A program made the translations under genes and the position numbers. The notes beneath the pieces were generated by a model. The model ran no database searches and was not told the origin of the DNA. It saw only the letters and a program-made list of their open reading frames with translations. A stretch of DNA of 64,000 nucleotides from an uncultured delta proteobacterium (GTDB lineage Bacteria > Desulfobacterota > Binatia > UBA9968), in NCBI GenBank assembly GCA_963804165.1, contig CAWDPO010000016.1:114284-178283 (forward strand), in the 5' to 3' direction. Of the stretch, positions 41,490 to 60,063 are shown piece by piece. Numbering within the stretch: the first letter of the stretch is position 1; each line of letters opens with the position of its first letter.

Positions 41490-41564
41490 CATGAGGATGC
41501 AGAGATGTCAGAGTATCGGAGTGATGGAAACGGATCAACGCATGAATGCAAAGCATTGCATCGA

Positions 41565-42580
41565 ATGAAAAAATCCTTTGCTTTCCGCGTCGATACTCAG
41601 CATCCAATGCAAACTGGCTGGCCATTGCTCTGTTGCGCTTTGCGTGTTCCTGCCGAGGCGCAGCAGCCAGGGAAAATCTTCCGCATAGGTTTCCTGGATC
41701 CAAGCACTGCTTCCGGTAGCGCGGTCCTCGTGGAGGCGTTCCGGCAAGAGCTGAGCAAGCTTGGCTGGATCGAGGGAAAGAATATCACCATCGAGTACCG
41801 GTTTGCCGAGCAAAAGCATGAGCGCCTGCCTGAGCTTGCGGCGGAGTTGGTTCGTCTAAAGGTTGATCTGATTGTGGTCGCAGGGACGCCACGGCGTTGG
41901 CGGCCAAGAAAGCAACTACTACCATCCCCATCGTGATGGCGAACGTTGGGGACCCAGTAGGCTGCAGGTTTGGTTGCCAGTCTGGCGCGGCCGGGAGGCA
42001 ATGTCACCGGGCTCTCGAGTTTAGGACCGAGCTAAATACCAAAAGGCTAGAGATACTCAAGGACGCGGTCCCCAAGCTCGCCCGAGTTGGACTTCTGCGG
42101 CCGCCGGGAGCCAGCATAGGACAAGACCTCCAACTGAAAGAGCTCAGGCCTGCGGCTCTGGCATTGAAGCTAAAATTGGAGGAGATCGAGACTCAACTCG
42201 ACGCCAAAGGTTTAGAGAGCGCCTTTCAAACCGCAAAGCAGAAGCAGGTCGACGCGATTATGACGACCGCCACTCGCCCCTTTTTCGCCGAAAGAAAGCG
42301 GATCGTCGAGCTTGCCGGCAAATACCGGTTGCCGGCTATTTACTCCCAGAAGGAGTATGTCGATGAGGGCGGTCTCATGTCCTATGGGGCGGACTACGAT
42401 GACCTCTATCGGCGCGCGGCTGTTTACGTGGACAAGATCTTGAAAGGTGCCAAACCGGCTGATTTGCCGGTGCAGCAGGCAACGAAGTTTGAATTCATCA
42501 TCAACCTCAAGGCGGCAAAACAGATCGGTCTGACAATTCCAGTCCGCGTGCTCGAGCGGGCGAATCAAGTGATCAAGTGA
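41565..42580 (+). CDS. ABC_sub_bind-type substrate-binding protein, copy b (frameshifted; start uncertain)
   Basis: AEAQQPGKIFRIGFLD ... GGLMSYGADY ... [20 protein letters not shown]. Confidence 0.88.
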
Positions 42581-42628
42581 TTCGTTAGAGTTTCGATTGC
42601 CGATTTTCGATTAGGGATCAAGCTGAGA

Positions 42629-43655
42629 TTGCCAAGGACACGATCGGTACTGAAATCGAAATCGAAAATCCAAAATCGAAAATGGTTGGCTCTTGCGCTA
42701 TCGTTCTATGTCGTCTTGCGCGCTGTCGCCGAGGCGCAGCAGCCAACGAAAGTCCCGCGGATAGGATACCTAACTGCTGTCTCACCTTCCACTGGCTCGG
42801 ACCGCATCGAGGCATTTCGGCAAGGTCTGCGTGAGCTTGGATACGTCGAGGGGAAAAACATTGTCATTGAGTATCGATATGCGGAGGGAAAACTCGATCG
42901 CCTCCCCGCGCTTGCGGCCGAGCTAGTCCGTCTCAAGGTAGATGTGATCGTCACCTCCGGTCCACTACCGACTCGTGCCACCAAGGAAGCAACCACGACG
43001 ATTCCCATCGTCATGGCGCAGGATGCCGATCCTGTTGGCAACGGGTTCGTCGCCAGCCTTGCGCGACCTGGGGGAAACATTACAGGATTGTCAGCTCATG
43101 CGCCCGGAGCTGAGCGGAAAACGACTGGAGCTTTTGAAAGAGACCATTCCTAAGCTCTCCCGCGTGGCCGTCTTCGGGACTTCGACCCAGCCGGGCAACG
43201 CACAATAGTTAAAAGAAACGGAACTCGCGGCAGGGGCGTTCAGAGTGAAGCTTCAATACCTAGACATACTGGTTCCAAAGGATATTGAGAGCGCATTCCG
43301 AGCCGCAGGCAAGGGGCGTGCTGACGCAGTCCTTATGATGGTCCAAGCAGCGTCGCCGGTTCTCACCGAAAACGAGATTGTAGAACTTGCGGTAAAGAGT
43401 CGACTCCGGCGACATATCACGCAGAGCCAGTATGTGGAAGCCGGCGGGCTTATGAGTTACGGCGTGAGCATCACCGACTTGAACCGCCGCGCCGCTACAT
43501 ATGTGGACAAGATTCTCAAAGGCGCCAAAGCCCGCCGACTTCCCGTCGAGCAGCCGACGAAGTTCGAGTTCATCATCAATCTCAAGGCGGCGAAGCAGAT
43601 CGGACTAACGATTCCGCCGAATGTGCTGGCGAGAGCGGATAGAGTGATCAGATGA
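42629..43655 (+). CDS. ABC_sub_bind-type substrate-binding protein, copy c (frameshift plus in-frame TAG at 43206; possible pseudogene)
   Basis: [15 protein letters not shown] ... [13 protein letters not shown]. Confidence 0.82.
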
Positions 43656-43786
43656 ACGACCAATAACAGTGCAGCGGCGAGTCAAAATTAAAATTGTGGG
43701 CATTTTCGATCAGATGTTCGTACGGCGCGAGATGATCGAGTTGATCCGAGCATGCGTGAGTCAGCTTCGTTTCCTAAGGACAGACG

Positions 43787-44821
43787 ATGCTGAAGAAAAT
43801 GGTCCGACGTTCAATGCTCAAAAGATCGAAAAATAGATTCGCCATTGTTACTCTTTTCGTCATGCTCTCGTGCACTCTTGCTGGGTTCCGGCCGAGGCGC
43901 AGCAGCCGAAGAAAGTCCCTCGGATAGGGTATCTATCGCCGTTCTGACCCAGCTACGTGAGTCCACCGTAGCCGAGGCAATTCGGCTGGCTCTGCGCGAG
44001 CTTGGCTACATAGAAGGACAGAACATCGCCATCGAGTACCGATATGCGGAGGGAAAGTCGATCGGTTCCCTGAGCTTGCGGCCGAGTTGGTGCGTCTCAA
44101 GGTTGATATCATCGTGGTACAGGAGGGGAACGATCCGGGCGGCCAAGAATGCGACCAAGACGATTCCCATCGTTATGACGGGCACTGGACTCGATCCTGT
44201 CGAGGCAGGCCTAATTGAAAGCCTTGCCCGTCCCGGCGGCAACGTCACCGGCATTACAAACCTTAGCAGGGAACTAGGCGGTAAGCGGCTGGAGCTGCTC
44301 AAAGAAGCCGTTCCCAAAATTGCCCGTGTCGCGGTTCTCTACGATCCGGCCAATCCGCCCAGTGTAATCGAGGTGAAAGAGGTTCTCCCAGTCGCGGCGC
44401 GTGCGCTGGGGTTGACTGTTCGGTCTTGGGAGGTACGAGCTGCGGACGATTTCGATAGGGTATTCGCTGCGATGAATAAGGAGCGCCCGGATGGACTCTA
44501 CGTGCTCGGGGGCGCGCTAATGAATGCTAACCGAAAACGGATCGCGGGCTTTGCGTTAAAGAGCCGGTTACCGTCGATGTATCACCGACAGAGAAGCTGT
44601 AGAGGCCGGCGGGCTCATGTACTACGGGGCGGACCTCGCGGACAGCTACCGGCGCGTCGCATATTACGTGGACAAGAATCCTGAAGGGAGCCAAGCCTGC
44701 CGATCTTCCCGTGGAGCAGCCGACGAAGTTCGAACTCGTCATCAATTTGAAGACAGCGAAGCAGATCGGCCTGACGATTCCGCCGAACGTGCTGGCGCGG
44801 GCGGACAAGGTCATCAAATGA
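43787..44821 (+). CDS. ABC_sub_bind-type substrate-binding protein, copy d (frameshifted)
   Basis: [49 protein letters not shown]. Confidence 0.85.
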
Positions 44822-44868
44822 CATTTTGGATTTGTCGATTTTAGATTTTGGATTGAGGCAGAAAAGCA

Positions 44869-45930
44869 ATGACAAAGAATTTCGGATGCGATCTCCGAAT
44901 TCTTGTTCCGACAATCGAAATCTAAAACCTGTGCTGAGCAACGTCGAAGTATCCAAAATCGAAAATGGCTGGGGCTTTCGCTCTCGTTGTCACGTTCGTT
45001 TTGGGGCTGCGGCTCAGGCGCAGCAGCCAGGAAAAATCTTCCGCATAGGTTTCCTGGATACAAGCACTGCTTCTGGTAGCGCGGTCCTCTTGGAGGCGTT
45101 CCGGCAAGAGCTGGCAAGCTTGGATGGATTGAGGGAAAGAATATCACCATCGAGTACCGGTTTGCCGAGCAAAAGCTGAGCGCCTGCCCGAGCTTGCGGC
45201 GGACTTGGTTCGTCTTAAGGTTGATCTGATTGTGGTCACAGGACGCCACGCGTTAGCGGCGAAGAAAGCAACCACTACCATCCCCATCGTGATGGCGAAC
45301 GCTGGGGACCCCGTGGGTGCAGGTCTGGTTGCCAGTCTGGCGCGGCCGGGAGGCAATGTCACCGGGCTTCTCGAGTTTAGCGCCCGAAGTAAACACGAAA
45401 AGGCTAGAGATACTCAAGGACGCGGTCCCCAAACTCGCCCGAGTTGGACTTCTGCGGCCGGCGGGAGGATCAGGAGACGTCCAACTGAAAGAGCTCAGGC
45501 CTGCGGCTCTGGCGCTAAAGCTAAAATTGGAGGAGATCGAGACTCAACCCGACCCCAAAGGTTTAGAGAGCGCCTTTCAAACCGCAAAGCAGAAGCAGGT
45601 CGGCGCGATTATGACGACCGCCGGTCCCGCTTTTTCGCCGAAAGAAAGCGGATCGTCGAGCTTGCCGGCAAATACCGATTGCCTGCTATTTACTTACAGA
45701 AGGAGTTTGTCGATGAGGGCGGTCTCATGTCCTACGGGGCGGACTACGATGACCTCTATCGGCGCGCGGCTGTTTACGTGGACAAGATCTTGAAAGGCGC
45801 CAAACCGGCTGATTTGCCGGTGCAGCAGGCGACGAAGTTTGAATTCATCATCAACCTTAAGGCGGCAAAACAAATCGGTCTGACAATTCCGGTCCGCGTG
45901 CTCGAGCGGGCGAATCAGGTGATCAAGTAG
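44869..45930 (+). CDS. ABC_sub_bind-type substrate-binding protein, copy e (frameshifted; close duplicate of b)
   Basis: AQAQQPGKIFRIGFLD ... PVRVLERANQVIK. Confidence 0.85.
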
Positions 45931-45980
45931 GCAGTGATCAGCGGTCAGAAGTCAGCGGTCAGCAGAACAGAAAAAAATTC

Positions 45981-46967
45981 ATGAATAGAAAAATTTTTGC
46001 CTTGCGCTATGCGCTTTGCTCTTTGCGCTTTGCCTTTCGTGCCGAGGCGCAGCAGCCAAAGAAACTCCCGCGGATCGGGCTTTCTAATCGGCAGTTCCGC
46101 TTCCTCCAATGCGGCTCGCATCGAGGCTTTCGCAAGGTCTACGCGAGCTTGGCTACGTGGAAGGTCAGAACATCTTCATGGAATACCGATATGCGGGAGG
46201 CAAGGCCGATGAGTATCCCAAGCTAGCTGCTGAGTTGGTCAGTCTCAAGGTAGACGTTATCGTCGTCAGGGGGTGGTAGTGGTTTGGCTCGTGCGGCGAA
46301 GGAAACCACCAAGACGATCCCCATCGTTATGACAGGCGGTAGCGATCCGGTTGGCGCCGGGCTTGTTGCCAGCCTAGCGCGGCCAGGTGGAAACATCACA
46401 GGGCTGACCGCTATAGCCGCAGAGTTAGCGGGCAAACGGCTGGAACTGCTAAAGGAGACCTTGCCCAGGCTCACCCGCGTCGGCGTGCTCTGGAATCCAA
46501 CGGACCAAGGTTCGGCCCAGGGCTTAAAAGAGATAGAAATCGCCGCTCCGACATTGGGGTTGGAGGTTCAATCGCTTCAGGTGCGGAGCCCCAGCAATTT
46601 CGAGAGTGCATTCAAAGCAGCCATTGCGGGCCAAGCTCGCGCTCTCCAAGTTCTGGGGAGTGGCCTCATCAATAGTCACCGGAACCGCATCATAGAGTTT
46701 GCGACCAAGAGCCGATTGCCAACGATGTTCGCGGACGCTGCGCTTGTCGAAGCCGGTGGGCTTATGTCGTACGGGCCGAACGCTCCTGACTTATATCGCC
46801 GCGCGGCCACTTATGTTGACAAGATCCTTAAAGGCGCCAAGCCCGCCGACCTGCCGGTGGAGCAGCCGAAAAAGTTCGACTTCGTCATCAATCTGAAAGC
46901 AGCGAAGCAGATCGGCCTGACGATTCCGCCGAATGTGCTGGCGCGGGCGGATCGGGTAATCAAGTGA
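45981..46967 (+). CDS. ABC_sub_bind-type substrate-binding protein, copy f (5' frameshifts)
   Basis: [13 protein letters not shown] ... [20 protein letters not shown] ... [13 protein letters not shown]. Confidence 0.87.
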
Positions 46968-47019
46968 AACAATTTTGGATTGCCGATTTTGGATTTTGGA
47001 TTGAAGGAGAGAAAAGCGC

Positions 47020-48077
47020 ATGAATGAAAAGTCTTGGCTCCCAGTTGTAAATTCTTGTCTCATAATCCAAAGTCTAAAATCCAAAATCGAAAATGGTGGG
47101 GATTATCGCTGTCTTTTCGCATTCGTAATGTGTGGGCGTTGCGGTCGAGGCGCAGCAGCCGAAGAAAGTCCCGCGCATAGGGTACCTTTCGTCGGTCGAT
47201 GCAGCTCTGAGTCCGCTCGCGCTGAGGGAATTCGGCGGGCTCTGCGCGAGCTTGGCTACATAGAAGGACAGAATATCGACTATCGAGTACCGATATGCCG
47301 AGGGAAAGACCGATCGGGCTTCCGAGCTTGCGGCCGAGTTGGTGCGTCTCAAGGTCGATATCATCGTCGTAGCAGGGGGGATCCATTGGATCCAGAGCGG
47401 CAAAGAATGCGACCAAGACGATTCCTATAATCATGGTGGGTGCCGGGAACGACCCTGTCGAGGCAGGCCTAGTTGAGAGCCTTGCCCGGCCGGGCGGCAA
47501 CGTTACCGGTATGACAAATCTCGGCGCAAAAATAGGCGGAAAGAGGCTGGAGCTCTAAAAGAAGCCGTTCCCAAAATTGCCCGTGTCGCGGTTATTTACG
47601 AGCCGGCCACTCCAGCCAATGTAGTCGAGGTCAAAGAGGACCTTCCAAACGCGGCGCTCGCGCTGAAGTTGGCTGTCCAAGCTTGGGAGGTACGAACTGC
47701 GGACGATTTCGAGAAGGTATTTGCTGCGCTAAACAAGGAGCGCCCGGATGGACTCTACGTGGCGGGGAGCCCGCTCCTAAATGCTAACCGAAAAACGCAT
47801 TGTGGCCTTTGCGTTAAAGAGCCGGTTACCGTCGATGTACGACAGCAGAGAAGCTGTAGATGGCGGTGGGCTCATGTCCTACGGGGCGGACCTCGCGGAC
47901 AGCTACCGTCGCGTCGCTACCTACGTGGACAAAATCCTGAAGGGAGCCAAGCCTGCCGATCTCCCGGTGGAGCAGCCGACGAAGTTTGAATTGGTCATCA
48001 ATCTCAAAGCCGCCAAGCAGATCGGCCTGACGATTCCGCCAAATGTGCTGGCGAGGGCGGATAAGGTGATCAAATAG
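47020..48077 (+). CDS. ABC_sub_bind-type substrate-binding protein, copy g (frameshifted)
   Basis: [62 protein letters not shown]. Confidence 0.85.
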
Positions 48078-48135
48078 CAGTGACCATGGAGCGAACAGTA
48101 AGGAGCAAAGAGCGGCAAGAACACAGGAGTAGATC

Positions 48136-49115
48136 ATGAGAAAAAATTCTTTGGTCTTACGCTTTGCGCCTTGCTCTTAGCGCTTTGCTTTCCCGCCGAG
48201 GCGCAGCAGCCAACGAAAGTCCCGCGGATAGGATATCTCGGTGGCGCCACTTGGCTACCGATCAGGCTCGCATCGAGGCATTCCGGCAGGGCCTGCGCGA
48301 GCTTGGGTACGTGGAGGGGAAGAACATCGTCATTGAGTGGCGATATGCAGAAGGAAAACTCGATCGCGAGCCCGCGCTCGCGGCGGAGCTAGTGCGTCTC
48401 AAGGTAGACGTGATCGTCACCGTGGGGTCGAATGCCACCCGTGCCGCCAAGGAAGCAACTGCTACGATTCCAATTGTGATGACGCAGGATCCCGATCCTA
48501 TTGGAAACGGGTTCGTCGCCAGCCTTGCGCGACCAGGCGGAAACATTACTGGATTATCAAACGTTAACCGGGAGCTAAGCGGAAAACGACTGGAGCTATT
48601 GAAGGAAGTCTTCCCAGGCTCTCCCGCGTGGCCGTCTTCGGGACTTCGACCAACCCGGGCACAGGCGCAAAATTTAAAAGAGACGGAACTCGCCGCAGGG
48701 GCGCTCAGAATCCAGCTTCAGTACCTCGACGTACTAGATCCAAAGGATATTGAGACTGCGTTCCGAGCGGCGAGCAAGGGGCGCGCTGAGGCAGTCCTCG
48801 TGCTAGGGGGCTCCGTACTCAATTCTCAGCGAGCACGGGTCGTCGAACTTGCGGCAAAGAGCCGGCTTCCGGCGATATACGGCATCCGAGAATCTGTGGA
48901 AGCCGGGGGCTTATGAGCTACGGCCCGAGCGGTAACGACTTGACCGGCGCGCCGCAACGTATGTCGACAAGATTTTGAAAGGCGCCAAGCCCGCTGAGCT
49001 GCCAGTCGAGCAGCCGACGAAGTTCGAGTTCATCATCAATCTGAAAGCGGCGAAGCAGATCGGCCTGACGATCCCGCCGAATGTGCTGGCGCGGGCGGAT
49101 AGGGTGATCAAATGA
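48136..49115 (+). CDS. ABC_sub_bind-type substrate-binding protein, copy h (frameshifted)
   Basis: AGGAG RBS; [15 protein letters not shown]; same clade as a and c. Confidence 0.86.
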
Positions 49116-49157
49116 CAGTTGACCAGTTGCCAGTGATCAGTTACCAGTGAGAAACAG

Positions 49158-50167
49158 GTGAGAAAAGACTCATAGAATTCAAAATCTCTTTGTCTGGTTA
49201 GCTGATAACTGTCTTGCTGATAACTTGCTTTGTTTCCGCCGAAGCGCAGCAGCCGAAGAAAGTCACGCGGATAGGGTATCTAACGCCGTTGAACCCAGCT
49301 ACCGAATCCACCCGTTCCGAGGCAATTCGGCTGGCTCTGCGCGAGCTTGGCTACATAGAAGGACAGAACATCGCCATCGAGTACCGATATGCGGAGGGGA
49401 AGCGCGATCGGCTCCCTGAGCTTGCGGCCGAGCTGGTGCGTCTCAAGGTTGATATCATCGTGGTAGCAGGAGGGGACGGTCCGATCCGGGCGGCCAAGAA
49501 TGCGACCAAGACGATTCCCATCGTTATGACGGGCACCGGGCCCGATCCTGTCGAGGCAGGCTTCGTTGAAAGCCTTGCCCGTCCCGGCGGCAACGTCACC
49601 GGCCTAACAAACCTTACCAGAGAACTAGGCGGGAAGCGGCTGGAGCTATTCAAAGAAGCCGTTCCCAAAATTGCCCGTGTCGCGGTTCTCTACGAACCGG
49701 CCAATCGGCCCAGTGTAATCGAGGTGAAAGAGGTTCTTCCAGTGGCGGCGCGTGCGCTTGGGTTAACTGTTCGGTCTTGGGAGGTACGAGCTGCGGACGG
49801 TTTCGATACGGTATTCGCTGCGTTGAATAAAGACCGCCCAGATGGACTCTACGTGACCGGGGGCTCGCTAATGGCTGCTAACGGAAAACGGATCGCGGGC
49901 TTTGCGTTAAAGAGCCGGTTGCCGTCGATGTACAGCGACAGAGAAGCTGTAGATGCTGGTGGGCTCATGTCCTATGGGGCGGACCTTGCGGACAGCTACC
50001 GGCGCGTCGCCACCTACGTGGACAAAATCCTGAAGGGCGCCAAGCCGGCCGACTGCCGGTGGAGCAGCCGACGAAGTTCGAGCTGGTGATCAATCTCAAA
50101 ACGGCGAAGCAGATCGGCGTGACGATCCCGCACAGTGCTGGGACGGGCGGATAAGGTGATTCAGTAA
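49158..50167 (+). CDS. ABC_sub_bind-type substrate-binding protein, copy i (frameshifts at both ends)
   Basis: [15 protein letters not shown] ... [13 protein letters not shown]; 291-aa core ORF 49214-50089. Confidence 0.88.
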
Positions 50168-50212
50168 GGCCCAAGGGGCAAGGAATATAAAAACTAACCA
50201 AGCCTAGATATC

Positions 50213-50557
50213 TCACAAGTTCAGAATGATGCGGATGCGGTTTTCCACTTCTTCCATCATAGGATTTGGCAAGGAGCCAATCTCTTGGCGGAAGGACTCG
50301 TTGGCCACAGCGATCACTTGGCCTAGAAGTAGATCGCTGTCGCGAGAAACTCCGCCTTGGCCCTTCTTGAGGCGAATCCGCAGAATTCCCGGATTTTCCA
50401 CCAGCCGGGTCGTCGTTGGAATGACGATAGTCGATGGGTACTCGGCCTCATTGACGAGATCGGATTGGAGCACCAGGCCAGGCCGAAGCTTTCCGGGTTT
50501 GGTTTTGATGCGCGGATTGAAGTCTATGATGTATAAGTGTCCCCTTTTGACGGGCAT
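50213..50557 (-). CDS. Type II toxin, PemK/MazF family endoribonuclease
   Basis: KRGHLYIIDFNP...KLRPGLVLQSD..N...TIVIPTTT...DSDLLLGQV. Confidence 0.9.
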   Translation of the reverse strand: MPVKRGHLYIIDFNPRIKTKPGKLRPGLVLQSDLVNEAEYPSTIVIPTTTRLVENPGILRIRLKKGQGGVSRDSDLLLGQVIAVANESFRQEIGSLPNPMMEEVENRIRIILNL

Positions 50558-50800
50558 TTACTCTTTCCCGTCCGCACGCGCGACACCGGCGTTGAAAAGC
50601 TCTCGGTTCTCCTCACGATCGGCCGCGCCGCAGCGATTCACAGAGTCCTGGATATCGCGCCGTAATTTTTCTTCCTGGCTTTTCTTTTCCAGAGTTCTTA
50701 GCGCGGTGCGGATCAGTGCCGATTTGCTTGCGATCCCCAGGTCTTTACGCAACCTTTCGATTTGCTCTTCTTCCTTTTTGGAAACGGCTATTGCTCCCAT
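50558..50800 (-). CDS. Putative antitoxin (ribbon-helix-helix/CopG-like)
   Basis: 80 aa with SKSALIRTAL helix, abutting the toxin; AGGAG RBS. Confidence 0.8.
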   Translation of the reverse strand: MGAIAVSKKEEEQIERLRKDLGIASKSALIRTALRTLEKKSQEEKLRRDIQDSVNRCGAADREENRELFNAGVARADGKE

Positions 50801-50831
50801 AATGCTCCTTGTTAGAAGACTTATTATGTTA

Positions 50832-50860
50832 TTTATAATTCAGCCCATGATTCAAGTCAA
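50832..50860 (-). promoter_or_regulatory. Sigma70 promoter of the TA operon, antisense to the array
   Basis: Minus strand TTGACT-N17-TATAAA. Confidence 0.7.
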
Positions 50861-50924
50861 ACTCATTAGCATCAGGCCGCGCGTTCTCGTCGTCGAGGCG
50901 GAATGGATTCCTCGTAGGCCACTC

Positions 50925-50986
50925 AAGCAGGTCGGTCTTACAATTCCAGTCCGCGTGCTGGAGCGGGCGAATCGTGTGATCAAGTG
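50925..50986 (+). pseudogene. Orphan 3'-end remnant of an array paralog
   Basis: Encodes KQVGLTIPVRVLERANRVIK, matching the b/e tails. Confidence 0.85.
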
Positions 50987-51034
50987 CAACGAGGGATGAG
51001 TGACGAGTGTCGAGTGGAAAGAGTAGAGAAAAAC

Positions 51035-51415
51035 ATGAAGAGAAAATTCACTGTCCTTACGCTTTGCGCCATGCTCTTTGCGCTTTGCGTGTCCGCGCAG
51101 GCGCAGCAGCCGAAGAAAGTTCCTCTGATAGGTTTTCTCGTTCCTGGTTCCTCTGCTAGTTACTCGGTCCGCATTGAGGCTTTTCGGCAAGGGCTGCGGG
51201 ATCTGGGGTATGTTGATGGCGAGAACATCATCATTGAGGGTCGATGGGCAGAAGGGTCGGCCGAACGCTTGTCCCATCTTATAGACGATCTGATCCTGCT
51301 CAAGTTAGACGTCCTGGTGGTCGGCTCGACGGGCGGTGCTCGGGCGGCGAAAAATGCCGGGGTTGCGACCCCTGTCGTCTTTGTCGCAGTGACTGATCCC
51401 ATAGGGTATGGATGA
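51035..51415 (+). pseudogene. ABC_sub_bind-type paralog k, truncated after about 125 aa
   Basis: [35 protein letters not shown]...VAVTDPIGYG*, cut where a heptamer leader begins. Confidence 0.85.
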
Positions 51416-51560
51416 TTGCGGATTTCGAATTTCGAATTTTGGATTGATGGGTACAACAATGGATCAAGTTTCGATTGACTCTTTCGCGATTGACTTTAAA
51501 TCCGCACTCCGCAATGTCAAATCCGCAATTCAATTGGGCGCCATGCCCTTTGCACTTTGC
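51415..51560 (+). repeat. Array-type leader module (ATTGCGG/ATTTCGA vs AATCCGC heptamer hairpin plus signal-peptide remnant)
   Basis: Direct repeat of 55030-55170. Confidence 0.8.
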
Positions 51561-51580
51561 TTTTCTGGCGAGGCTTCATC

Positions 51581-53890
51581 ATGACAACAGAGCACACCAC
51601 GACCGGACTTATTGGCGCGTCTATACTTCGCGTCGAGGACGCGCCCCTGATTACCGGCAAAGGATACTATACGGAGGACATCCGGCTACCTGGAATGCTC
51701 CACATGGCTTTTCTGCGTAGCCTCTACCCACATGCGAAAATAATTTCCATCGATACAAGCGCAGCGAAGGCAATGGCCGGAGTGATCGCCGTGGTGACCG
51801 GCGATGACCTCAGTGAGCGGTTGCATATCCCGGCTATTCCGATGGTGCCCGGCATGAAGATACCGCCCCATCCGCTGCTGGCGCGTGGCGCAGTCCACGC
51901 GGCCGGCACTCCCGTGGCGGCGGTGGTTGCTGAAAGCCGCGCCCTCGCCCAGGATGCGGCGAGCGCTATCATTGTGGAATACGAAGCGCTGCCGGCAGTG
52001 GTGAGTGCCGAAAAAGCGCTGGAGCCCGGCGCGCCACTCGCCCGCGAGGAGCTGGATAGCAACCTGTGCTACATCGCGACAAAAAAAGGCGGCGACGTCG
52101 ACAAAGCATTCGCCGAGGCCGAGCATATCATTCGCCTGCGTATCGCTAGCCCGAGGTTGGTAGCGATGGCAATGGAGCCGAGAGGCATCGTGGCCAAGCC
52201 GGAACCGACGGGAGATCTGACTGTTTGGCTCTCAACTCAGAGCCCGCACCGAGTGCGCGCGGATCTGGCCACCGCGATCGGTTTTCCTGAGCACAGGATC
52301 CGCGTCATCGCGCCTGATGTCGGTGGCGGGTTCGGCAGCAAAGGACTCCTCTACCAAGAAGACGCGCTGGCCAGCCACCTGGCGCTGAAGCTCGGCCGGC
52401 CCGTCCAGTGGATCTCCACGCGTAGCGAGGATTTCGTCACGACGAATCAAGGGCGCGACCAGGTGATGACGTCGGAGCTGGCCCTCAAGCGGGATGGCAC
52501 CATGCTCGGCTTGAAAGTGCGCGTGATCGGGAATCTGGGCGCTTACCTGAACTCCCTTTCCGCGATACCACCGCTGCGCATGATGGCGATGGCCCCGGGC
52601 TGCTACCAGATCCAAAACTGCTCCGTCGAGGTAGTCGCGGTTTTTACTAATACCATTCCCACCGGTCCGTATCGCGGCGCGGGGAGGCCGGAGTCGGTGC
52701 TCAACATCGAACGGTTGATCGACAAAGCGGCGCGCGAATTGGCCATGGACCGTCTGGAAATCAGGCGCAAAAATTTTATTCGCCCCGAGCAGTTCCCGTA
52801 CCGTACGGGGGTAAACGTCGAATACGATTCGGGAGACTATGAAAAGTCGCTCGCCGAAGCGCTGCGGTTATCCGACTACGAAAAACTTATTCGCGATCGG
52901 GACGAAGCGCGCGAACGCGGCGAGTTTGTCGGCGTCGGTCTCTCGACTTTCGCTGAGCCGAGTGGCGGCGCCGGCTTTGAGAGCGCAACGGTTCGGGTGG
53001 AGCGCAGCGGAGAAATTACGGTGCTCACCGGGTCCAGCTCCCACGGTCAGGGTCATGAGACCGTGTTTGCTCAGGTGGCGGCCGAGAGAATGCGCGTTTC
53101 CATGGATCACGTGGCGATTCGACACGGTGATACCCTGACGATTCAGGAGGGCGGCGGCACCTTTGGCAGTCGCAGCGCCATCATGGGCGGCGGAGCATTG
53201 GTGATGGCCATTGATCGGGTCATTGAAAAGGCTCGCCGTATTGCTGCGCATTTGATGGAGGCGGCAGCCGAGGACATCGTTCAAACGGATGGCGGCTTCG
53301 CGGTGGCTGGAGTGCCCGACAAAAAAGTTTCCTGGCGCCAAATTGCCGCCGCCGCGTACGGAATGAACCTTCCGCGCGGTATGGAGCCCGGTCTTCACGA
53401 GACCGCCTTCTTTGATCCAAGGCGCGAAGCCTGGGGCTTCGGTGCGCATGTGGCGGTGGTGAGAATCGATCGGGAAACCGGCACGCCGACGCTTGAAAAG
53501 CTCGTGCTGGTCGATGACTGCGGCGTCGTCATCAACCCGATGATTCTCAACGGGCAGATTCACGGCGGCGTAGCTCAGGGCCTCGGTGAAGCGCTTCGCG
53601 AACAGATGCTCTTTGGCGACGACGGCGCGGTTCTCACCGGCTCGTTGATGAATTACGCGGTGCCGCGCGCCGGAGACATGCCGCAGCTCACACTGGGCGA
53701 GACGGTGACGCCGAATCCGTTTAACCCATTGGGCGTCAAGGGCGTGGGCGAGGCGGGATGCAACGGGGCGCCGCCGGCGGTGGCCAACGCGGTCATGGAC
53801 GCGCTCGCTCCCCTCGGTATCGACCACATCGACATGCCCTACACCGCGCCCAAACTCTGGGCGGCGATACGGAAAGCCGAAGGACGCTGA
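51581..53890 (+). CDS. Xanthine dehydrogenase family molybdopterin-binding subunit (CoxL/CutL-like, not form I CODH)
   Basis: RVED..LITGKG.Y, DVGGGFGSK, PYRGAGRPE, HGQGHET, GTFGSRS, GQIHGGVAQGLG, KGVGEAG. Confidence 0.95.
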   Translation: MTTEHTTTGLIGASILRVEDAPLITGKGYYTEDIRLPGMLHMAFLRSLYPHAKIISIDTSAAKAMAGVIAVVTGDDLSERLHIPAIPMVPGMKIPPHPLLARGAVHAAGTPVAAVVAESRALAQDAASAIIVEYEALPAVVSAEKALEPGAPLAREELDSNLCYIATKKGGDVDKAFAEAEHIIRLRIASPRLVAMAMEPRGIVAKPEPTGDLTVWLSTQSPHRVRADLATAIGFPEHRIRVIAPDVGGGFGSKGLLYQEDALASHLALKLGRPVQWISTRSEDFVTTNQGRDQVMTSELALKRDGTMLGLKVRVIGNLGAYLNSLSAIPPLRMMAMAPGCYQIQNCSVEVVAVFTNTIPTGPYRGAGRPESVLNIERLIDKAARELAMDRLEIRRKNFIRPEQFPYRTGVNVEYDSGDYEKSLAEALRLSDYEKLIRDRDEARERGEFVGVGLSTFAEPSGGAGFESATVRVERSGEITVLTGSSSHGQGHETVFAQVAAERMRVSMDHVAIRHGDTLTIQEGGGTFGSRSAIMGGGALVMAIDRVIEKARRIAAHLMEAAAEDIVQTDGGFAVAGVPDKKVSWRQIAAAAYGMNLPRGMEPGLHETAFFDPRREAWGFGAHVAVVRIDRETGTPTLEKLVLVDDCGVVINPMILNGQIHGGVAQGLGEALREQMLFGDDGAVLTGSLMNYAVPRAGDMPQLTLGETVTPNPFNPLGVKGVGEAGCNGAPPAVANAVMDALAPLGIDHIDMPYTAPKLWAAIRKAEGR

Positions 53891-53975
53891 CGCATTGTTT
53901 CAATTTGCCTGTTTTGAGTCGCGCGTTGACCCAAAACTCGAAACTGCGAATTAGGAGAGGAGGAGTTAGGGAGCT

Positions 53976-54959
53976 ATGGCCAAGAACTTTACGATCTGTG
54001 TCGGCACGTTGGGCATGGGCCTGTGGCGTAGCGCCGACGGCGGCAAGAGCTGGGCGAGAGGCAAATTATGGAAAGGATACCAGGGTGGGAGATCTGTCTT
54101 TGGTCTCGCGGTGCATCCACAGGATCCCCGGATCATCTACGCGGGCGCAGACGATGGCATCTATCGAAGCGAAGACCGGGGCGCGACCTTCGAGCACATT
54201 GCATCGCCGCTGGACGCGTATAACGTCTGGCGCATTGCCATCGACCCGGTGGACCCCGATACAATGTTCGCCGGCACCGCTCTGCCGGCGCTCTTTCGCT
54301 CGCGCGACGGCGGTCTTCACTGGGAAAAACTCCCAGCGGAATTTGCCACCGATTGCATGAACGTAACGAAGCCGCGCGTTACCGCGCTTGTGGTCGACCC
54401 GTTGGACCACAATTTCGTCTGGGCGGGGGTCGAGGTCGATGGCGTGCGCGTGAGCCGGGATGGCGGCGACACATGGACGCGTCCTTCCGGCGGTCTCATG
54501 GACGAGCCTGACATCCACGATATCAAGATACTTCCGGGCAAACCGGGCGCAGCGGTAGTCACTATCCCCGACGAGATCTGCGTCAGCACCGATGGCGGCG
54601 CCAATTGGCAGGCATTCGGGGTGCGCGGACGCTTTCCCTTACCGTATTGCCGCAACGTGGTCTTCAAACTAGACGAGCCGAAAGTGATCCTGGCGGCCAT
54701 CGGCGATGACGCGCTGGGCGGCCTCGGCGCCCTACAGCGCTCCACTGACGGCGGCCATAGCTGGGAAACGCCGCTCCTTCCGATCACGCCAAATACACAT
54801 ATGGAGTGCTTCGCGACCCATCCCGCAGATCCCAATCTGATCCTCGCGTGCAGCCACTACGGCCAACTGTTCGCCAGCTCGGACGGCGGCGAATGGTGGG
54901 TCAAACTCCCCCGGGAGTTCACTGAGATCCGAGGCGCTTTGGCGTGGGTGCCCAACTAA
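53976..54959 (+). CDS. BNR/Asp-box beta-propeller protein (sialidase/YCF48-like fold), no signal peptide
   Basis: Repeated S-x-D-G-G-x-x-W boxes (SADGGKSW, SRDGGLHW, SRDGGDTW, STDGGANW, STDGGHSW, SSDGGEWW). Confidence 0.88.
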   Translation: MAKNFTICVGTLGMGLWRSADGGKSWARGKLWKGYQGGRSVFGLAVHPQDPRIIYAGADDGIYRSEDRGATFEHIASPLDAYNVWRIAIDPVDPDTMFAGTALPALFRSRDGGLHWEKLPAEFATDCMNVTKPRVTALVVDPLDHNFVWAGVEVDGVRVSRDGGDTWTRPSGGLMDEPDIHDIKILPGKPGAAVVTIPDEICVSTDGGANWQAFGVRGRFPLPYCRNVVFKLDEPKVILAAIGDDALGGLGALQRSTDGGHSWETPLLPITPNTHMECFATHPADPNLILACSHYGQLFASSDGGEWWVKLPREFTEIRGALAWVPN

Positions 54960-54961
54960 GG

Positions 54962-55016
54962 GTGGAGCGATAGGCGTGACGGTCCCGCCTAACGTGCTGG
55001 CGAGAGCGGGCGACAG
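54962..55016 (+). pseudogene. Orphan 3'-end remnant of an array paralog
   Basis: GTGGAGC joined to sequence encoding [13 protein letters not shown]. Confidence 0.8.
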
Positions 55017-55067
55017 AATGAAATTTTAGATTGCGGATTTCGAATTTCGGATTTAAGGCAAAAAACA

Positions 55068-56109
55068 ATGGATTCGAGTTTGGATCGACTCTTTCGAAAT
55101 TAATTTTAAATCCGCAATCCGCAATCTCAAATCCGCAATTCTACTGGGCGCTATGCTCTTTGCACTTTGCGTGTCCGCCTCTGCGCAGCAGTCGAAGAAA
55201 GTTTACCGGATAGGGTATCTAGCACCGACGGACCCAGCTACGGAGTCTAACCGTTCCGACGCAATTCGGCTGTCGTTGCGCGAGCGCGGCTACATTGAAG
55301 GACAGAACATCGCATTCGAGTTCCGCTATGCGGATGGGAAGCTCGATCGGTTTCCTGAGCTTGCGGCCGAACTTGTGCGTCTCAAGGTCGATATCATCGT
55401 GGCTGCCGGTGGGGAAGTGCTGACCCGGGCGGCCAAGAGCGCGACCCAAGCGCTTCCCATCGTCATGGCGGGCAGCGGCGTCGATCCTGTCGAGGCTGGC
55501 CTAATTGAAAGTTTGGCTCGTCCCGGCGGCAACGTCACCGGCATGACAAACCTTCAGGGAGATCTGGGCGGTAAGCGGCTGGAGCTACTAAAAGAAGCGG
55601 TTCCCAAACTCGCGCGCGTCGCGGTTCTCCACGATCCAGCCAGTCCGGGCACAACCCGCGAGATGTACGAGTTTCTACCGCCCGCGGCGCGTAAGCTGCG
55701 GTTGACACTTCAACCTTGGGAGGTACGAACTGCGGACGGTTTTGAGAAGGTTTTTGCGGCTCTAACTAAGGAACACCCGGACGGACTATACGTACCCAAT
55801 AGCCCTCTAATAAGCGCTAACCAAAAAACGATCGCGCGTTTTGCGTTAAAGAGCCGATTGCCGTCGGTGTTCCAAATTAAAGAACATGTCGATGCCGGCG
55901 GGCTCATGTCCTACGGCGCGGACCTCGCCGACAGCTACCGGCGCGTCGCCTATTACGTGGACAGAATCCTGAAGGGCGCCAAACCTGCCGAACTGCCGGT
56001 GGAGCAGCCGACGAAGTTCGAGTTCGTGATCAATCTCAAGACGGCGAAGCAGATCGGCCTGACGATTCCGCAAAGGGTGCTGGGGCGGGCGGACAGAGTT
56101 ATAAAATGA
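55068..56109 (+). CDS. ABC_sub_bind-type substrate-binding protein, copy m (intact from 55153; upstream ATG out of frame)
   Basis: MLFALCVSASAQQSKKVYRIGYL ... PQRVLGRADRVIK. Confidence 0.92.
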
Positions 56110-56162
56110 CAGTGAGCCAGTAAGCAGTGAGCAGCTAATGAAAAACCGGTGTGCAACAATGC

Positions 56163-57143
56163 ATGATCAAACAAATTCTTTTGCTGCTTACTGTTAATTG
56201 TCTTTCTGTTTACTGTTTGTTTCCCGCCGAGGCGCAGCAGCCGACGAAAATTCCTCGCATAGGATACGTTGGTCCCGCCACGACCGATCCCCGCACCGCG
56301 TCATTCCGGCAAGGTTTGCGCGATCTCGGCTATACGGAGGAGAAAAATATCCTGGTCGAGTATCGTTACGTTGGCGGGAGACTGGACCAGTTCCCTGTTG
56401 TTGTGGCCGAGCTCGTGCAGCAAAAGGTGGATGTGCTCGTCGCCGTGCCCTTTCAAGCGATCCTCGCAGCCAAGCAGGCGACCCAGACGATCCCCATTGT
56501 CATGGTGACAACGTTGGATCCGGTCGCGACCGGGATCGTCGATAGCTTGGCGCGACCGGGCGGAAACATCACGGGGCTCGCCAGACTCACCCGGGTATTG
56601 GGTGCAAAACGGTTGGAGTTGATTAAGGAGACCGCTCCGAAGGTATCGCGAGTCGGAGTGCTGTGGGCGGCGGATGACGAGGGCTCGGCGATTGGTTTTA
56701 AAGATTATGAGGCAGCAGCGGGCGCACTAAATTTACCCCTTCAGAGCCTTGCTGTGCGCGGCCCGACTCCTGATTTGGAAAGTGCGATCGGAGACGCGGC
56801 CAAGGGACCATCGACCGCGCTTATTGCAATCAGGGGCGGTCTGCTCAATCGGTATCAAAAGCGGATTGCGGATCTCGCCATCGAGAACCGTCTGCCTTCT
56901 ATGTTTGAAGGAAACGACTTTGTAAATGCAGGCGGGCTGATGTCCTATACAACCGATGATGACGAGAGTTTCAAGCGTGCCGCTGTTTATATGGACAAGA
57001 TTCTGAAGGGCGCCAAGCCCAGTGAATTGCCTGTGGAGCAGCCGAAGAAGTTTGAGTTGGTGATCAATCTGAATACAGCGAAGCAGATCGGCCTGACGAT
57101 TCCGCCGGATGTGCTGGTGCGAGCGGACAAGGTGATTCGGTGA
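56163..57143 (+). CDS. ABC_sub_bind-type substrate-binding protein, copy n (intact, divergent)
   Basis: [15 protein letters not shown] ... [11 protein letters not shown] ... PPDVLVRADKVIR. Confidence 0.93.
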   Translation: MIKQILLLLTVNCLSVYCLFPAEAQQPTKIPRIGYVGPATTDPRTASFRQGLRDLGYTEEKNILVEYRYVGGRLDQFPVVVAELVQQKVDVLVAVPFQAILAAKQATQTIPIVMVTTLDPVATGIVDSLARPGGNITGLARLTRVLGAKRLELIKETAPKVSRVGVLWAADDEGSAIGFKDYEAAAGALNLPLQSLAVRGPTPDLESAIGDAAKGPSTALIAIRGGLLNRYQKRIADLAIENRLPSMFEGNDFVNAGGLMSYTTDDDESFKRAAVYMDKILKGAKPSELPVEQPKKFELVINLNTAKQIGLTIPPDVLVRADKVIR

Positions 57144-57193
57144 CAAGAAGGCAACAGGCAACAGGGCTTCGGAGTCGGCGTGCCGATCCTCAG

Positions 57194-57544
57194 CTACCCG
57201 ACAAACCCGTCTACCGGGATCAAACGCTTGGCGACGGGATCGACTGCAAGGAAAAGACTTTCAAGAGCCACGGCGCCGAGCAGCGCAGGACCGTCGGGCG
57301 CAATGAAGCATGGAGTCGTAATTTCATCGCCGTTCAGAGCCAACCGCGCTTCGGCTACGGGCCATACGTCTCGCTGTCCGCCAGCGATCACGACGCGTTG
57401 AGACCGTGCGGGCTTGAGCTCAAGCCTTTCCGCCAGCGATCGGGGCACCACGCTCAGAGTAGCGCCGGTGTCCACAAGAAGCTCAACTTCTTCGACACGT
57501 CCCGTCGGACCGCTCAGGCGTCCCTTTACGTGAAAAAGTCCCAT
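57194..57544 (-). CDS. Retropepsin-like (clan AA) aspartyl protease
   Basis: ELLVDTGATLSVVP and ALLGAVALESL; possible own promoter TTGCGT-N16-TACAAT at 57572-57599. Confidence 0.85.
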   Translation of the reverse strand: MGLFHVKGRLSGPTGRVEEVELLVDTGATLSVVPRSLAERLELKPARSQRVVIAGGQRDVWPVAEARLALNGDEITTPCFIAPDGPALLGAVALESLFLAVDPVAKRLIPVDGFVG

Positions 57545-57684
57545 CGCAAATGCCTTCTCAAAAGCACGGCCATTGTAGCTCAGCCGACAAACAACGCAAC
57601 AACAACGATCAGTCAAAAGAAGGATAGATGGAACTCGGAGCAAAATGTCTTCGATGTCGGTTTCTAGTTGCCGATGAGCGAATT

Positions 57685-57711
57685 GCGCGGGCGGATAAAG
57701 TCATTAAATGA
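57685..57711 (+). pseudogene. Orphan 3'-end remnant of an array paralog
   Basis: GCGCGGGCGGATAAAGTCATTAAATGA = ARADKVIK*, followed directly by a CAGTGAG heptamer leader. Confidence 0.8.
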
Positions 57712-57764
57712 CAGTGAGCGGTGAGCAGTAAGCAGTGAGCAGCAAAAAACCGGGAGCAAAACGG

Positions 57765-58757
57765 ATGATCAAACAAATTCTTTTCTGCCTACTGCTAACT
57801 GTCTTTCTGTTTACTGTTTTTTCTGCAGAGGCGCAGCAGCCAACGAAAGTAGCACGGATAGGCTATCTAGTGGCGGGCGATCCAGCTGGTGAGTCCGCCC
57901 GCGCTGAGGCCATTCGGCTGAATCTGCGCGAGCTTGGCCACGTGGAAGGACAGAACATCGCCAGCGAGTACCGATATTCGCATGGGAAAAACGATCGAGC
58001 TTCTGAGCTTGCTGCCGAGCTAGTACGTCTCAGGGTTGATGTCATTGTGGTAGCAGGAGGAGACCCGTGGATTCGGGCGGCCAAGAACGCGACCAAAACA
58101 ATTCCCATCGTTATGGTGGGCGTTGGGGGCGATCCCGTCGAGGCAGGCCTGGTGGAGAGCCTTGCCCGTCCCGGCGGCAACGTCACCGGCATTACAAACC
58201 TTGGCCCAGAACTAGGTGGGAAGCGGCTGGAACTGCTAAAAGAAGCGGTTACCAAACTTGCCCGTGTCGCGGTTCTCTACGATCCGGCTAGTCCGGGCAC
58301 GGCACGTGAGATGAAAGAGCTTCTCCCAGTCGCGGCCCGTGGGCTGGGGTTGACCCTTCAGACTTGGGATGTACGAGCTGCGGACGGTTTCGAGAAGGTA
58401 TTCGCTGCGCTGAGTAAGGAGCGCCCGGATGGACTCTATGTGCTCTCCGGCCCGCTAGTGCGTGCTAACGGAAAACGGATCGCGGATCTTGCGTTAAAGA
58501 GTCGGCTACCGTCGATGTACGCCATAAGAGAGTCTGTAGATACCGGCGGGCTCATGTACTACGGGGCGGACGTCGCGGACAGCTACCGGCGCGTCGCCTA
58601 TTTCGTTGACAAGATCCTGAAAGGCGCAAAACCGGCTGACCTGCCCGTCGAGCAGCCGACAAAGTTTGAGTTCATCATCAATCTCAAGACAGCCAAGCAG
58701 ATCGGTCTGACGATTCCGCAAAGGGTGTTGGGGCGGGCAGACAAGGTCATCAAGTAA
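57765..58757 (+). CDS. ABC_sub_bind-type substrate-binding protein, copy p (intact)
   Basis: [35 protein letters not shown] ... PQRVLGRADKVIK. Confidence 0.94.
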   Translation: MIKQILFCLLLTVFLFTVFSAEAQQPTKVARIGYLVAGDPAGESARAEAIRLNLRELGHVEGQNIASEYRYSHGKNDRASELAAELVRLRVDVIVVAGGDPWIRAAKNATKTIPIVMVGVGGDPVEAGLVESLARPGGNVTGITNLGPELGGKRLELLKEAVTKLARVAVLYDPASPGTAREMKELLPVAARGLGLTLQTWDVRAADGFEKVFAALSKERPDGLYVLSGPLVRANGKRIADLALKSRLPSMYAIRESVDTGGLMYYGADVADSYRRVAYFVDKILKGAKPADLPVEQPTKFEFIINLKTAKQIGLTIPQRVLGRADKVIK

Positions 58758-58860
58758 TTTTGGATTTTCGATTTTAGATTTTGGATTGAAGCGCAGGAGA
58801 ATAATTCTATGATTCGATTTCCTTCCGAGAATCCAAAATCGGCAATCCAAAATCCAAAAT
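58757..58860. repeat. ATTTTGG/CCAAAAT heptamer inverted repeat enclosing RBS and ATG (same type at 42588-42683, 44822-44966, 46970-47095)
   Basis: ATTTTGG ATTTTCG ATTTTAG ATTTTGG ATT ... AGGAG ... ATG ... AATCCAA AATCGGC AATCCAA AATCCAA AAT. Confidence 0.9.
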
Positions 58861-59825: not shown

Positions 59826-59829
59826 GGAG

Positions 59830-59945
59830 AAAGGGGGAATTTACTCCGTGGGATTCTCACCCCTCTTTGGCAAAGAGGGGAAGGGGAGATTTTTGAACCG
59901 AATGACGCGGGAATAATGCAGTGAAATTCTGAGTCAGGACACTAG
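59830..59945. mobile_element. Inverted partial copy of the CTAG-ended MITE-like element
   Basis: Reverse complement CTAGTGTCCTGACTCAGAA...AAAATCTCCCCTTCCCCTCTTTGCCAAAGAGGGGTGA matches 39917-39995. Confidence 0.55.
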
Positions 59946-59966
59946 AAATCTGGTAAATAATTTATG

Positions 59967-60063
59967 CATCATTCCGGACAACCCACGATCACAGTCCGGT
60001 GTAGCGCGAGGCGGAATCCAGAATTCCAGAAAAGCCTGGATACCCGCTTTCGCGGACATGACG
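59967..60063. repeat. CGTC-type palindromic repeat
   Basis: Copy of 38883-38983, with CTGGATACCCGCTTTCGCGGACATGACG. Confidence 0.75.

Follow-up and report, generated by a model that had tools for sequence, protein, structure and literature searches.

A 64,000-nt stretch of contig CAWDPO010000016.1 from an uncultured soil delta proteobacterium (assembly GCA_963804165.1; the whole stretch is called the window here, and the genome comprises 7.5 Mb in 46 contigs and is 81% complete) contains a co-directional array, at 40.5-58.8 kb, of 13 copies of a substrate-binding protein (SBP) gene of the PF04392 (ABC_sub_bind) family. At most junctions of this array a long hairpin with arms of imperfect tandem repeats starts just behind the stop codon of the upstream gene and ends within the signal-peptide codons of the next one. 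We find that these leaders are a local manifestation of a family of post-stop tandem-repeat hairpins spread over the whole genome, a connection that had gone unnoticed in the original prediction made from the letters of the window. The structure of the hairpins, their position, a partial covariation of their arms and the exchange of the leaders that carry them are directly supported by the comparisons presented below. As to their function, the explanation we favor, with a confidence slightly short of even, is that they are lineage-specific cistron-boundary RNA hairpins, comparable to the repetitive extragenic palindromes (REPs) of other bacteria, that have been built into exchangeable leader/signal-peptide cassettes. 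This explanation takes its lead from the features that stay constant, namely the tandem-repeat stem, its placement after the stop and the cistron boundary itself.

Tandem Repeats Finder (TRF) detects period-7 arrays on both sides of most gaps in the array, such as ATTTTGG at 44823-44854, ATTTTGG at 46972-47002 with AATCCAA at 47064-47094, CAGTGAG at 56110-56134 with TTTACTG at 56180-56218, and the pairs 57712-57742/57790-57819 and 58757-58787/58830-58860. The signal peptide of each PF04392 copy ends in ...AEAQQP, and each segment from the upstream stop to the AQQP codons was folded as RNA and scored against 200 dinucleotide shuffles. A long-range helix of 22-35 pairs, joining the repeat arm after the stop to an arm within the signal-peptide codons of the next gene, was recovered in 11 of the 14 junctions (leaders b, c, e, g, h, i, m, n, p and q, and a remnant at 51416), with the left arms beginning 0-10 nt past the upstream stop. 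The original prediction had proposed this pairing, and it also stands as regards the peptides it had singled out, since NPKSAIQNPKW, LLLTVFLFTV and LCAMLFALC are present in the translated open reading frames (ORFs) and right-arm codons of these types do encode segments of signal peptides. It had further noted that the arms of f and k do not match; folding agrees, with only 12 scattered pairs and no long-range pairing in either, and f is a mismatched (chimeric) cassette. A hairpin is absent from junction d, and leader b, which had been counted among the heptamer-type arms, turns out to be a plain inverted repeat.

Across the genome TRF reports 3332 arrays with peaks at periods 7 (524), 8 (454) and 9 (795), the commonest units being CAAGGTT/GTTCAAG, GGATTTT, CGATTTT, 8-mers of the TGGAGTGA type and 9-mers of the GTTCCAATC type. 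For 265 of the 1183 merged arrays of period 6-10 a reverse complement lies no more than 300 nt away, against 21 in a mirror control, and about 162 non-redundant hairpins with arms of 7-, 8- or 9-nt tandem repeats, and a median loop of 23.5 nt, were collected. Co-directional gaps hold 131 of these, convergent gaps 18 and divergent gaps 3, and the other 10 are inside genes (background gaps: 3280 co-directional, 833 convergent and 905 divergent). Of the two arms, the one closer to the upstream gene follows its stop at a median distance of 9 nt and lies within 15 nt of it in 108 of 149 cases. This placement, post-stop and nearly absent from divergent gaps, is a REP-like distribution. Next to genes other than those of SBPs the order is stop, hairpin, Shine-Dalgarno (SD) motif and ATG, with 10-30 nt between the end of such a generic hairpin and a free SD motif; apparent overlaps in ordinary genes proved to be an artefact of longest-ORF start calls. 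Rfam yielded no match at gathering score in the 64-kb window, and scans of positions 41000-60500 showed no excess of sigma-70 promoters (7 vs 8.1 +/- 2.8) or of intrinsic terminators (17 vs 21.9 +/- 4.4).

Only in SBP genes, namely those of the PF04392, NMT1 and TctC families, does the hairpin overlap the signal peptide. The ATTTTGG repeat family lies beside PF04392 genes in 17 of 22 cases, and the GTTCAA, GTTCCA and TGGAGT families in 0 of 119. For the PF04392 leaders we assembled a set of 181, drawn from this genome together with 79 loci in related metagenome-assembled genomes (MAGs) that bear the labels Syntrophobacter, Syntrophobacteraceae, Deltaproteobacteria, Binatia and others. An inverted repeat with a score of at least 24 is present in 63 of them, compared with 7 in the mirror control. 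The original prediction had the hairpin enclose the ribosome-binding site and start codon, and an in-frame start does lie in the loop of 41 of these 63 leaders, accompanied by an SD-like purine motif in 35 of the 41. The clearest case outside the window is an array of TctC (PF03401) genes on another contig (C17), in which the GTTCAAR left arm is translated as FKSSKVQAFKV, constituting the n-region, the loop as the hydrophobic core and the right arm as ELLNPLNVE. The seven stems of this array have energies of -28 to -46 kcal/mol and z-scores of -3.1 to -7.2, and none of 200 shuffles matched them in stability. Exactly one frame is open across the hairpin in all seven of these genes; the 39 generic GTTCAA hairpins, by comparison, comprise 21 without an open frame, 15 with a single one and 3 with two. 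A TGGAGT hairpin likewise overlaps the signal peptide of an NMT1-like gene on contig C43.

The original prediction supposed that left and right arm families go together, and over the 181 leaders they are indeed correlated. The classes compared below are T (CAGT/CAGTGAG/CTTACTG), B (ATTTTGG) and G (with a CTTTGC-type right arm). A class T right arm is accompanied by a class T left arm in 18 of 21 leaders and a class B right arm by a class B left arm in 21 of 29. The 42 leaders with CTTTGC-type right arms have mixed left arms (6 matching, 4 of the G-U-compatible GGCGTGAGG type, 5 ATTTTGG, 6 CAGT and 21 with none), so that mismatches like those of f and k are common in this class. The further claim that the repeat family changes while pairing is kept holds for CAGTGAG/CTTACTG, which displays compensatory changes, but not for ATTTTGG, in which base-pair covariation is absent. 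In class T, cognate arms pair better than non-cognate ones (p <0.0002), and the consensus stem in an alignment of 17 leaders has 17 long-range pairs, with double changes in 6 of 17. Paired cells amount to 92.3% in this alignment, vs 85.5% in shuffles (0 of 500) and 20-56% in slid controls, and double-change cells number 22, vs 7.4 in shuffles (0 of 500 reach 22), though related sequences can beat such covariation shuffles without any structure. On the sense strand, mismatches of the G-U type outnumber those of the A-C type by 80 to 32 in class T and by 34 to 18 in class G, the bias being found where the right arm encodes the hydrophobic core; composition may contribute to it. Two other measures were set aside. 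RNAduplex energies of left and right halves, computed on a sample, did not discriminate cognate from non-cognate pairs (-51.4 vs -49.5 kcal/mol) because long duplexes with big interior loops arise from any pair, and local pairing scores were used instead. A transition-tolerant alignment comparing G-U with A-C mismatches over all leaders gave nearly equal scores for chimeric controls, and the per-class version was kept.

Leader class bears no relation to the phylogeny of the proteins that follow. It requires 20 changes when traced over a phylogeny built from 42 intact mature PF04392 proteins, vs 21.8 with shuffled labels, and the nearest neighbor has the same class in 13 of 42 cases, vs 11.3 expected. 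Identity between leaders can be as high as 86-94% while it is only 60-64% over the following 600 nt. When leaders p and n are aligned with a copy on contig C6 and one from another MAG (L072), a block of high identity runs from the last ~25 nt of the upstream gene to GAGGCGCAGCAGCC, past which identity collapses sharply; both ends of the block fall on coding anchors conserved throughout the family, the C-terminal codons of the upstream gene and the AEAQQP codons. Although their upstream neighbors are unrelated, leaders p, m and k are each still preceded by 27-60 nt of an SBP 3' tail. Leader q, which precedes an NMT1-type gene, differs from a PF04392 leader on contig C37 at 1 of 33 positions in the left arm, is identical to it over 36/36 positions of the right arm and shares ~85% identity in the hydrophobic region, although the mature parts are unrelated. 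Similarly, the seven hairpin-bearing TctC genes are confined to one array but are not a single clade, with 5 label changes on a tree of 43 proteins, at least 2 of which are forced by well-supported branches. Leaders are thus swapped among paralogs and between unrelated SBP families, by recombination or gene conversion, and as exchanged cassettes they evolve apart from the mature proteins. The chimeric junctions that had been suspected at f and k are accordingly more widespread than those two, with whole leaders exchanged as blocks. One might go further and regard the unit as a portable expression-and-export cassette of ~130-170 nt, comprising post-stop stem, SD motif, start codon and complete signal peptide, that moves between SBP genes, also across unrelated families, and is maintained through selection acting on the RNA stem; we consider this stronger form possible but rather doubtful.

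In the explanation preferred here, the elements are stems with arms of imperfect 7-9 nt tandem repeats set directly after stop codons at cistron boundaries. In the SBP arrays the left arm abuts the upstream stop, the loop carries the SD motif and ATG, and the right arm would supply the codons for the n-region or the h-region of the signal peptide, the entire hairpin being translated in the TctC array; such an overlap may be tolerated since the signal peptide is cleaved away. The stem in the sense transcript would then mark the cistron boundary. By analogy with the REPs of Escherichia coli, it would probably shield the 3' end of the upstream cistron from exonucleases and, when within ~15 nt of the stop, probably interfere with termination. 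It would also display the ribosome-binding site of the next cistron in an open loop instead of hiding it. REPs were reportedly first studied 3' of binding-protein genes (malE/hisJ) as stabilizers of mRNA, and Higgins is said to have proposed in 1988 that they evolve by gene conversion. Like the REP, BIME and REPIN elements of Enterobacteria and Pseudomonas, the hairpins are high-copy extragenic palindromes that lie in transcribed gaps 3' of genes and are rare in divergent promoter gaps. Many of them are also within 15 nt of a stop codon, a distance at which E. coli REPs are reported to stall ribosomes and lower upstream translation (PMC12306157). They differ from REPs in that their arms are imperfect 7-9 nt tandem repeats of several families and in that those of SBP genes are translated and carry a start codon, a situation not described for REPs in the literature consulted.

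A number of observations weigh against this explanation. Three of the window junctions (d, f and k) are devoid of a hairpin. Neither arm class is present in 66 of the 181 leaders and no left class in 94, so the hairpin must be dispensable. The predicted helix was recovered by folding, but its separation from shuffled segments is modest, the whole-segment z-scores ranging from -3.59 (n) to +2.16 (f); the segments contain much sequence beyond the stem, which dilutes these scores. In class B, the pairing of cognate arms is not superior to that of non-cognate arms within the class (p 0.34-0.69) and there is no G-U bias (28 vs 20); the match of their arms is explained by co-inheritance within one repeat family, with no need for selection on pairs. 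More generally, paralogs are not independent of each other and the shuffle tests therefore overstate significance. Part of the window array, as judged from its frameshifted copies, may be decaying or mis-assembled. Among the 18 Y1 genes checked, no cognate RAYT-type transposase consistently flanked by the hairpin repeats, such as accompanies REPs, was found. Finally, a right arm that is unwound by each ribosome on the next gene makes for an odd 3' protector.

The main rivals are a coupling device and functionless selfish repeats. With respect to translation, the original prediction had considered a coupling or silencing switch; silencing would work by sequestering the ribosome-binding site. 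In 40 hairpin leaders the start region is predicted to be unpaired with a probability of 0.56, compared to 0.46 for 150 control genes (p 4e-5) and 0.49 for 56 SBP leaders lacking a hairpin; for the SD motif the values are 0.42 in hairpin leaders and 0.41 in controls. The start region is predicted to be more open than in controls, and therefore sequestration is unsupported for the PF04392 leaders. In translational coupling, initiation or early elongation on the downstream SBP gene would instead depend on a ribosome that has just terminated upstream and melts the first 12-15 nt of the left arm. The proximity of left arms to stops, both in the 11 window junctions and in the genome-wide median, fits this idea, as does the retention of an SBP 3' tail with its stop before leaders p and m even behind an unrelated gene. 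The TctC array fits it too: there the start codon overlaps or neighbors the upstream stop (TGATGA), the stable stem begins ~15 nt past the ATG, inside the footprint of the initiating ribosome, and paralogs from this array that lack the hairpin possess a canonical AGGAG instead, along with a short signal peptide of canonical form; in the hairpin-bearing genes coupling is possible. However, the PF04392 loops, which hold the SD motif and ATG and are predicted to be at least as accessible as control genes, leave nothing obvious to unlock, the 18 hairpins in convergent gaps have no downstream gene to couple, and the generic hairpins stop short of the free SD motif. On balance we consider coupling unlikely.

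We likewise hold it unlikely that the hairpins are selfish or neutral DNA, that is, repeats that propagate themselves or are driven by slippage or gene conversion, serve no host function and persist where constraint is lax, as in 3' intergenic regions and cleaved signal peptides, with the match of arms reflecting a common repeat origin. GATTTTNGATTTTNGATT was detected in 23 of the 24 genomes from this genus, in all 5 from a second family and in 0 of the 11 that were searched from a third family within the order. GTTCAAN x3 is present in 21 of the 24 and in 0 of 16 other genomes. In favor of a selfish or neutral origin, copy number within the genus ranges over 0-101 for GTTCAAN x3 and 0-87 for GATTTTN, and neither repeat occurs in the 11 searched genomes of a sister family. 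These tallies include one unpublished genome (G005), without which they are 22/23 for GATTTTNGATTTTNGATT and 20/23 for GTTCAAN x3. The interchangeability of ATTTTGG-class arms, the spread of leaders independently of genes and the breaks of metagenome contigs at arm boundaries (58757, 58790, 58829 and 58861) point in the same direction. So does the presence in the genome of 18 matches to the Y1 transposase domain (PF01797), many of them in ORFs of ~320 aa (e.g. C34:158490, C34:162788, C1:180575 and C39:55862). Yet these Y1 genes are not consistently flanked by the repeats, 14 arrays lying within 1.5 kb of the 18 genes as against ~11 by chance on a rough estimate from array density. The compensatory changes and sense-strand G-U bias of class T, the extreme placement relative to stops, the avoidance of divergent gaps and the frame kept open through all seven TctC hairpins also argue against purely selfish elements.

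The two other alternatives are both unlikely. Phase variation, in which gain or loss of 7-nt units by slipped-strand mispairing would shift the frame and toggle SBP paralogs, has a precedent in the opa genes of Neisseria, whose CTCTT repeats in leader-peptide codons are phase-variable. As in opa, the unit here is not a multiple of three and lies within leader-peptide codons; moreover, leaders e, g, h, i and m are out of frame with the mature part, and a difference of one 7-nt unit between copies occurs in the non-coding left arm of leader p. But unlike in opa the units are imperfect, adjacent ones differing in sequence, which disfavors slippage, and the arm has a complementary partner upstream. 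In the coding arm, the alignment of 17 class T leaders contains no unit-length indels, inspected lesions proved to be indels of a single base or a nonsense change, and all indels listed from metagenome contigs, which are poor population data, are of one base, making this alternative quite improbable. Least probable of all is the proposed analogy with integron attC sites, in which a folded single-stranded DNA hairpin is recognized by a site-specific recombinase that moves gene cassettes: the co-directional array with imperfect hairpins between its genes, the demonstrated exchange of leaders and several multi-copy tyrosine recombinase genes recall it, but no integron integrase was found at cut-off in this 81% complete genome (best TIGR02249 match 104.9 bits vs 265), the hairpin holds the start and signal peptide of the next gene, it is leaders that are exchanged and not genes with their sites, the block ends at conserved coding anchors as homologous exchange predicts, the arms, as judged by eye with no formal scan, are without RYYYAAC/GTTRRRY-type ends (AAAATGG, TTTACTG and CTTTGC, with GTTCAAG having C at position 4), and the G-U bias is as expected for RNA, or for just one strand of DNA. 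The tyrosine recombinase genes encode proteins of 284-310 aa (C18:37335, C37:2075, C5:4384 and C10:35735), some of them on contigs rich in SBP arrays; no link of these or of the Y1 transposase genes to the hairpins has been established.

Short tandem repeats of comparable unit length are known elsewhere. The STRR sequences of cyanobacteria are heptanucleotide tandem repeats. According to a study on Beggiatoa, its genome contains abundant intergenic arrays of the heptamer TAACTGA, mostly just upstream of start codons, for which a post-transcriptional role was proposed, and the repeats of Beggiatoaceae comprise 169 direct sets and one indirect set (PMC4679880). Some class T right arms contain CTGATAACTG, which includes TAACTG. 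The hairpins described here differ from these repeats in forming inverted pairs with long stems, in lying behind stop codons, in being coding within SBP genes and in belonging to MAGs labeled Syntrophobacteraceae or Binatia. A literature search, which did not cover supplements or subscription journals, found no description of hairpins built from tandem repeats that code for signal peptides or surround start codons in SBP arrays; the nearest accounts it found are those of the Beggiatoaceae repeats and of REPs (PMC12306157, PMC2817692).

The features of the window are collected in the table. The Pfam matches of the genes led by the cassettes, in the window and in the TctC array on C17, are above cut-off (PF04392, E 1.7e-36 to 3.5e-45; NMT1, E 4.1e-9; TctC, E 6e-11 to 7e-20). 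Just 4 of the 13 PF04392 copies have a long mature frame (i, 281 aa; m, 308 aa; n, 303 aa; p, 308 aa), and the remaining 9 stop after 16-139 aa through frameshifts or stops. Soil metagenome contigs show single-base indels at or near 43541, 44056/44058, 44674, 45367 and 50052, and the breaks may represent real decay or assembly indel errors, with many leaders sitting on broken or mis-assembled genes. The 20 public soil or rhizosphere runs contain at most 0.27 of the sampled words, and the four runs examined gave short contigs that cross-map between paralogs belonging to many organisms. In run X1, one soil contig fuses the left and right arms of leader q (58787-58830), omitting the 42-nt loop with the SD motif and ATG; it probably derives from a different locus or organism in which this hairpin has a short loop.

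The array is interrupted by a PemK/RHH gene pair and by genes for a molybdopterin oxidoreductase, a BNR/sortilin-type protein and an aspartyl-protease-like protein, and is followed by two NMT1-type binding-protein genes (58809-59825 and 60105-61121). The PemK/MazF-type toxin and ribbon-helix-helix (RHH; CopG) antitoxin genes lie at 50213-50800 on the minus strand, and ~60 nt of an SBP 3' tail (50930-50986) follow ahead of leader k. Leader m is preceded by ~50 nt of such a tail (54975-55021) behind the BNR/sortilin-type gene (53976-54959), and leader p has a 27-nt tail (57685-57711, with TGA at 57709-57711) at its front behind the aspartyl-protease-like gene (57194-57643, minus strand), its cassette ending at the AEAQQP codons. 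An orphan leader, consisting of a hairpin and partial signal peptide (51416-51560), has no binding-protein gene after it and runs into the molybdopterin-dependent oxidoreductase gene (51557-53890). Outside the SBP array, GTTCAA-type tandem arrays with units of 8 or 9 nt also occur at 32853-32893, 62720-62751 and 63851-63887, as well as at 30618-30747 (C16:144901-145031), where a pair of them makes a hairpin of the generic post-stop kind. Some SBP leaders of relatives (loci L004, L028, L055, L059 and L079) have a GC-rich palindromic repeat on their 5' side (ccctcgccc...gggagagggctagggtgagggc) that translates as ...SPLPxGERxRVRG-like strings, and a similar-looking element may precede the array in the window at ~39912-40170.

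Table. Leaders and related hairpins of the window; z compares the folding of the segment with 200 dinucleotide shuffles.
Feature	Coordinates	Strand	Class or kind	Left arm	Right arm	Loop, start codon and remarks	z
Leader b	41494-41615	+	ordinary inverted repeat	41494-41535	41573-41615	in-frame ATG 41565 in loop	-2.46
Leader c	42591-42681	+	ATTTTGG	42591-42618	42653-42681 (KSKSKIQNRK)	in-frame starts TTG only	-0.94
Junction d	43656-43908	+	without tandem-repeat hairpin				-0.89
Leader e	44823-44980	+	ATTTTGG	44823-44871	44907-44959, on to ~44980	hydrophobic region and AQQP in different frames	-1.15
Leader f	45931-46058	+	arms unpaired	CAGYGRT-type repeats 45938-45963	TTGCGCT repeats 46002-46037		+2.16
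Leader g	46972-47094	+	ATTTTGG	46972-47013	47055-47094	GGAG and ATG 47020 in loop; in-frame TAA immediately 5' of cleavage site	-2.27
Leader h	48080-48204	+	GCAAAG/CTTTGC	48080-48127	48162-48204, over hydrophobic region	ATG 48136 in loop, one base out of frame, in A run	-1.47
Leader i	49117-49225	+	CAGT	49117-49152	49187-49225 (LITVLLIT)	loop start codon lost	-1.93
Leader k	50987-51112	+	without long-range helix	GAGTG-type repeats 50989-51016	CGCTTTG repeats 51060-51089	ATG 51035, giving MKRKFTVLTLCAMLFALCVSAQA	-0.29
Orphan leader remnant	51416-51528	+	ATTGCGG/AATCCGC	51416-51457	51492-51528		-0.44
Leader m	55027-55143	+	ATTGCGG/AATCCGC	55027-55058	55104-55143		-2.22
Leader n	56110-56208	+	CAGTGAG	56110-56141, abuts stop 56107-56109	56177-56208, spans hydrophobic region ILLLLTVNCLSV	ATG 56163 in loop	-3.59 (0/200 shuffles)
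Leader p cassette	57685-57842	+		57712-57746	57782-57816 (LFCLLLTVFLFTV)	GGGAG and ATG 57765 in loop	-2.35
Leader q (NMT1-type gene 58809-59825)	58758-58859	+	ATTTTGG	58758-58791, overlaps stop TAA 58755-58757	58826-58859 (ENPKSAIQNPKW)	AGGAG and ATG 58809 in loop	-2.26
Generic 9-mer tandem-repeat hairpin	30618-30747	+	genome-wide kind, outside SBP array	CGTTCAAAT	TTGAACGAT		

On a practical level, gene callers will misplace the starts of hairpin-led SBP genes, assemblies break at these repeats, and phylogenies of SBPs should leave out the leader. The long paralog arrays also offer a natural test bed for the effect of stable cistron-boundary stems on mRNA stability and translation. In NPKSKIQNPKW-type segments it is the heptamer phase, not the codon phase, that fixes the variable positions, which results in swaps between P, R and L. 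If the boundary-hairpin explanation is correct, REP-like elements would have been taken into coding sequence, leaders with their signal peptides would spread horizontally among paralogs and across protein families, and the signal peptides of dozens of transporter binding proteins would be set by the architecture of RNA/DNA repeats and not by the needs of the peptide. Should the more doubtful portable cassette also hold true, signal peptides would evolve as exchangeable nucleic-acid modules, with their amino acids largely dictated by repeat pairing with non-coding RNA.

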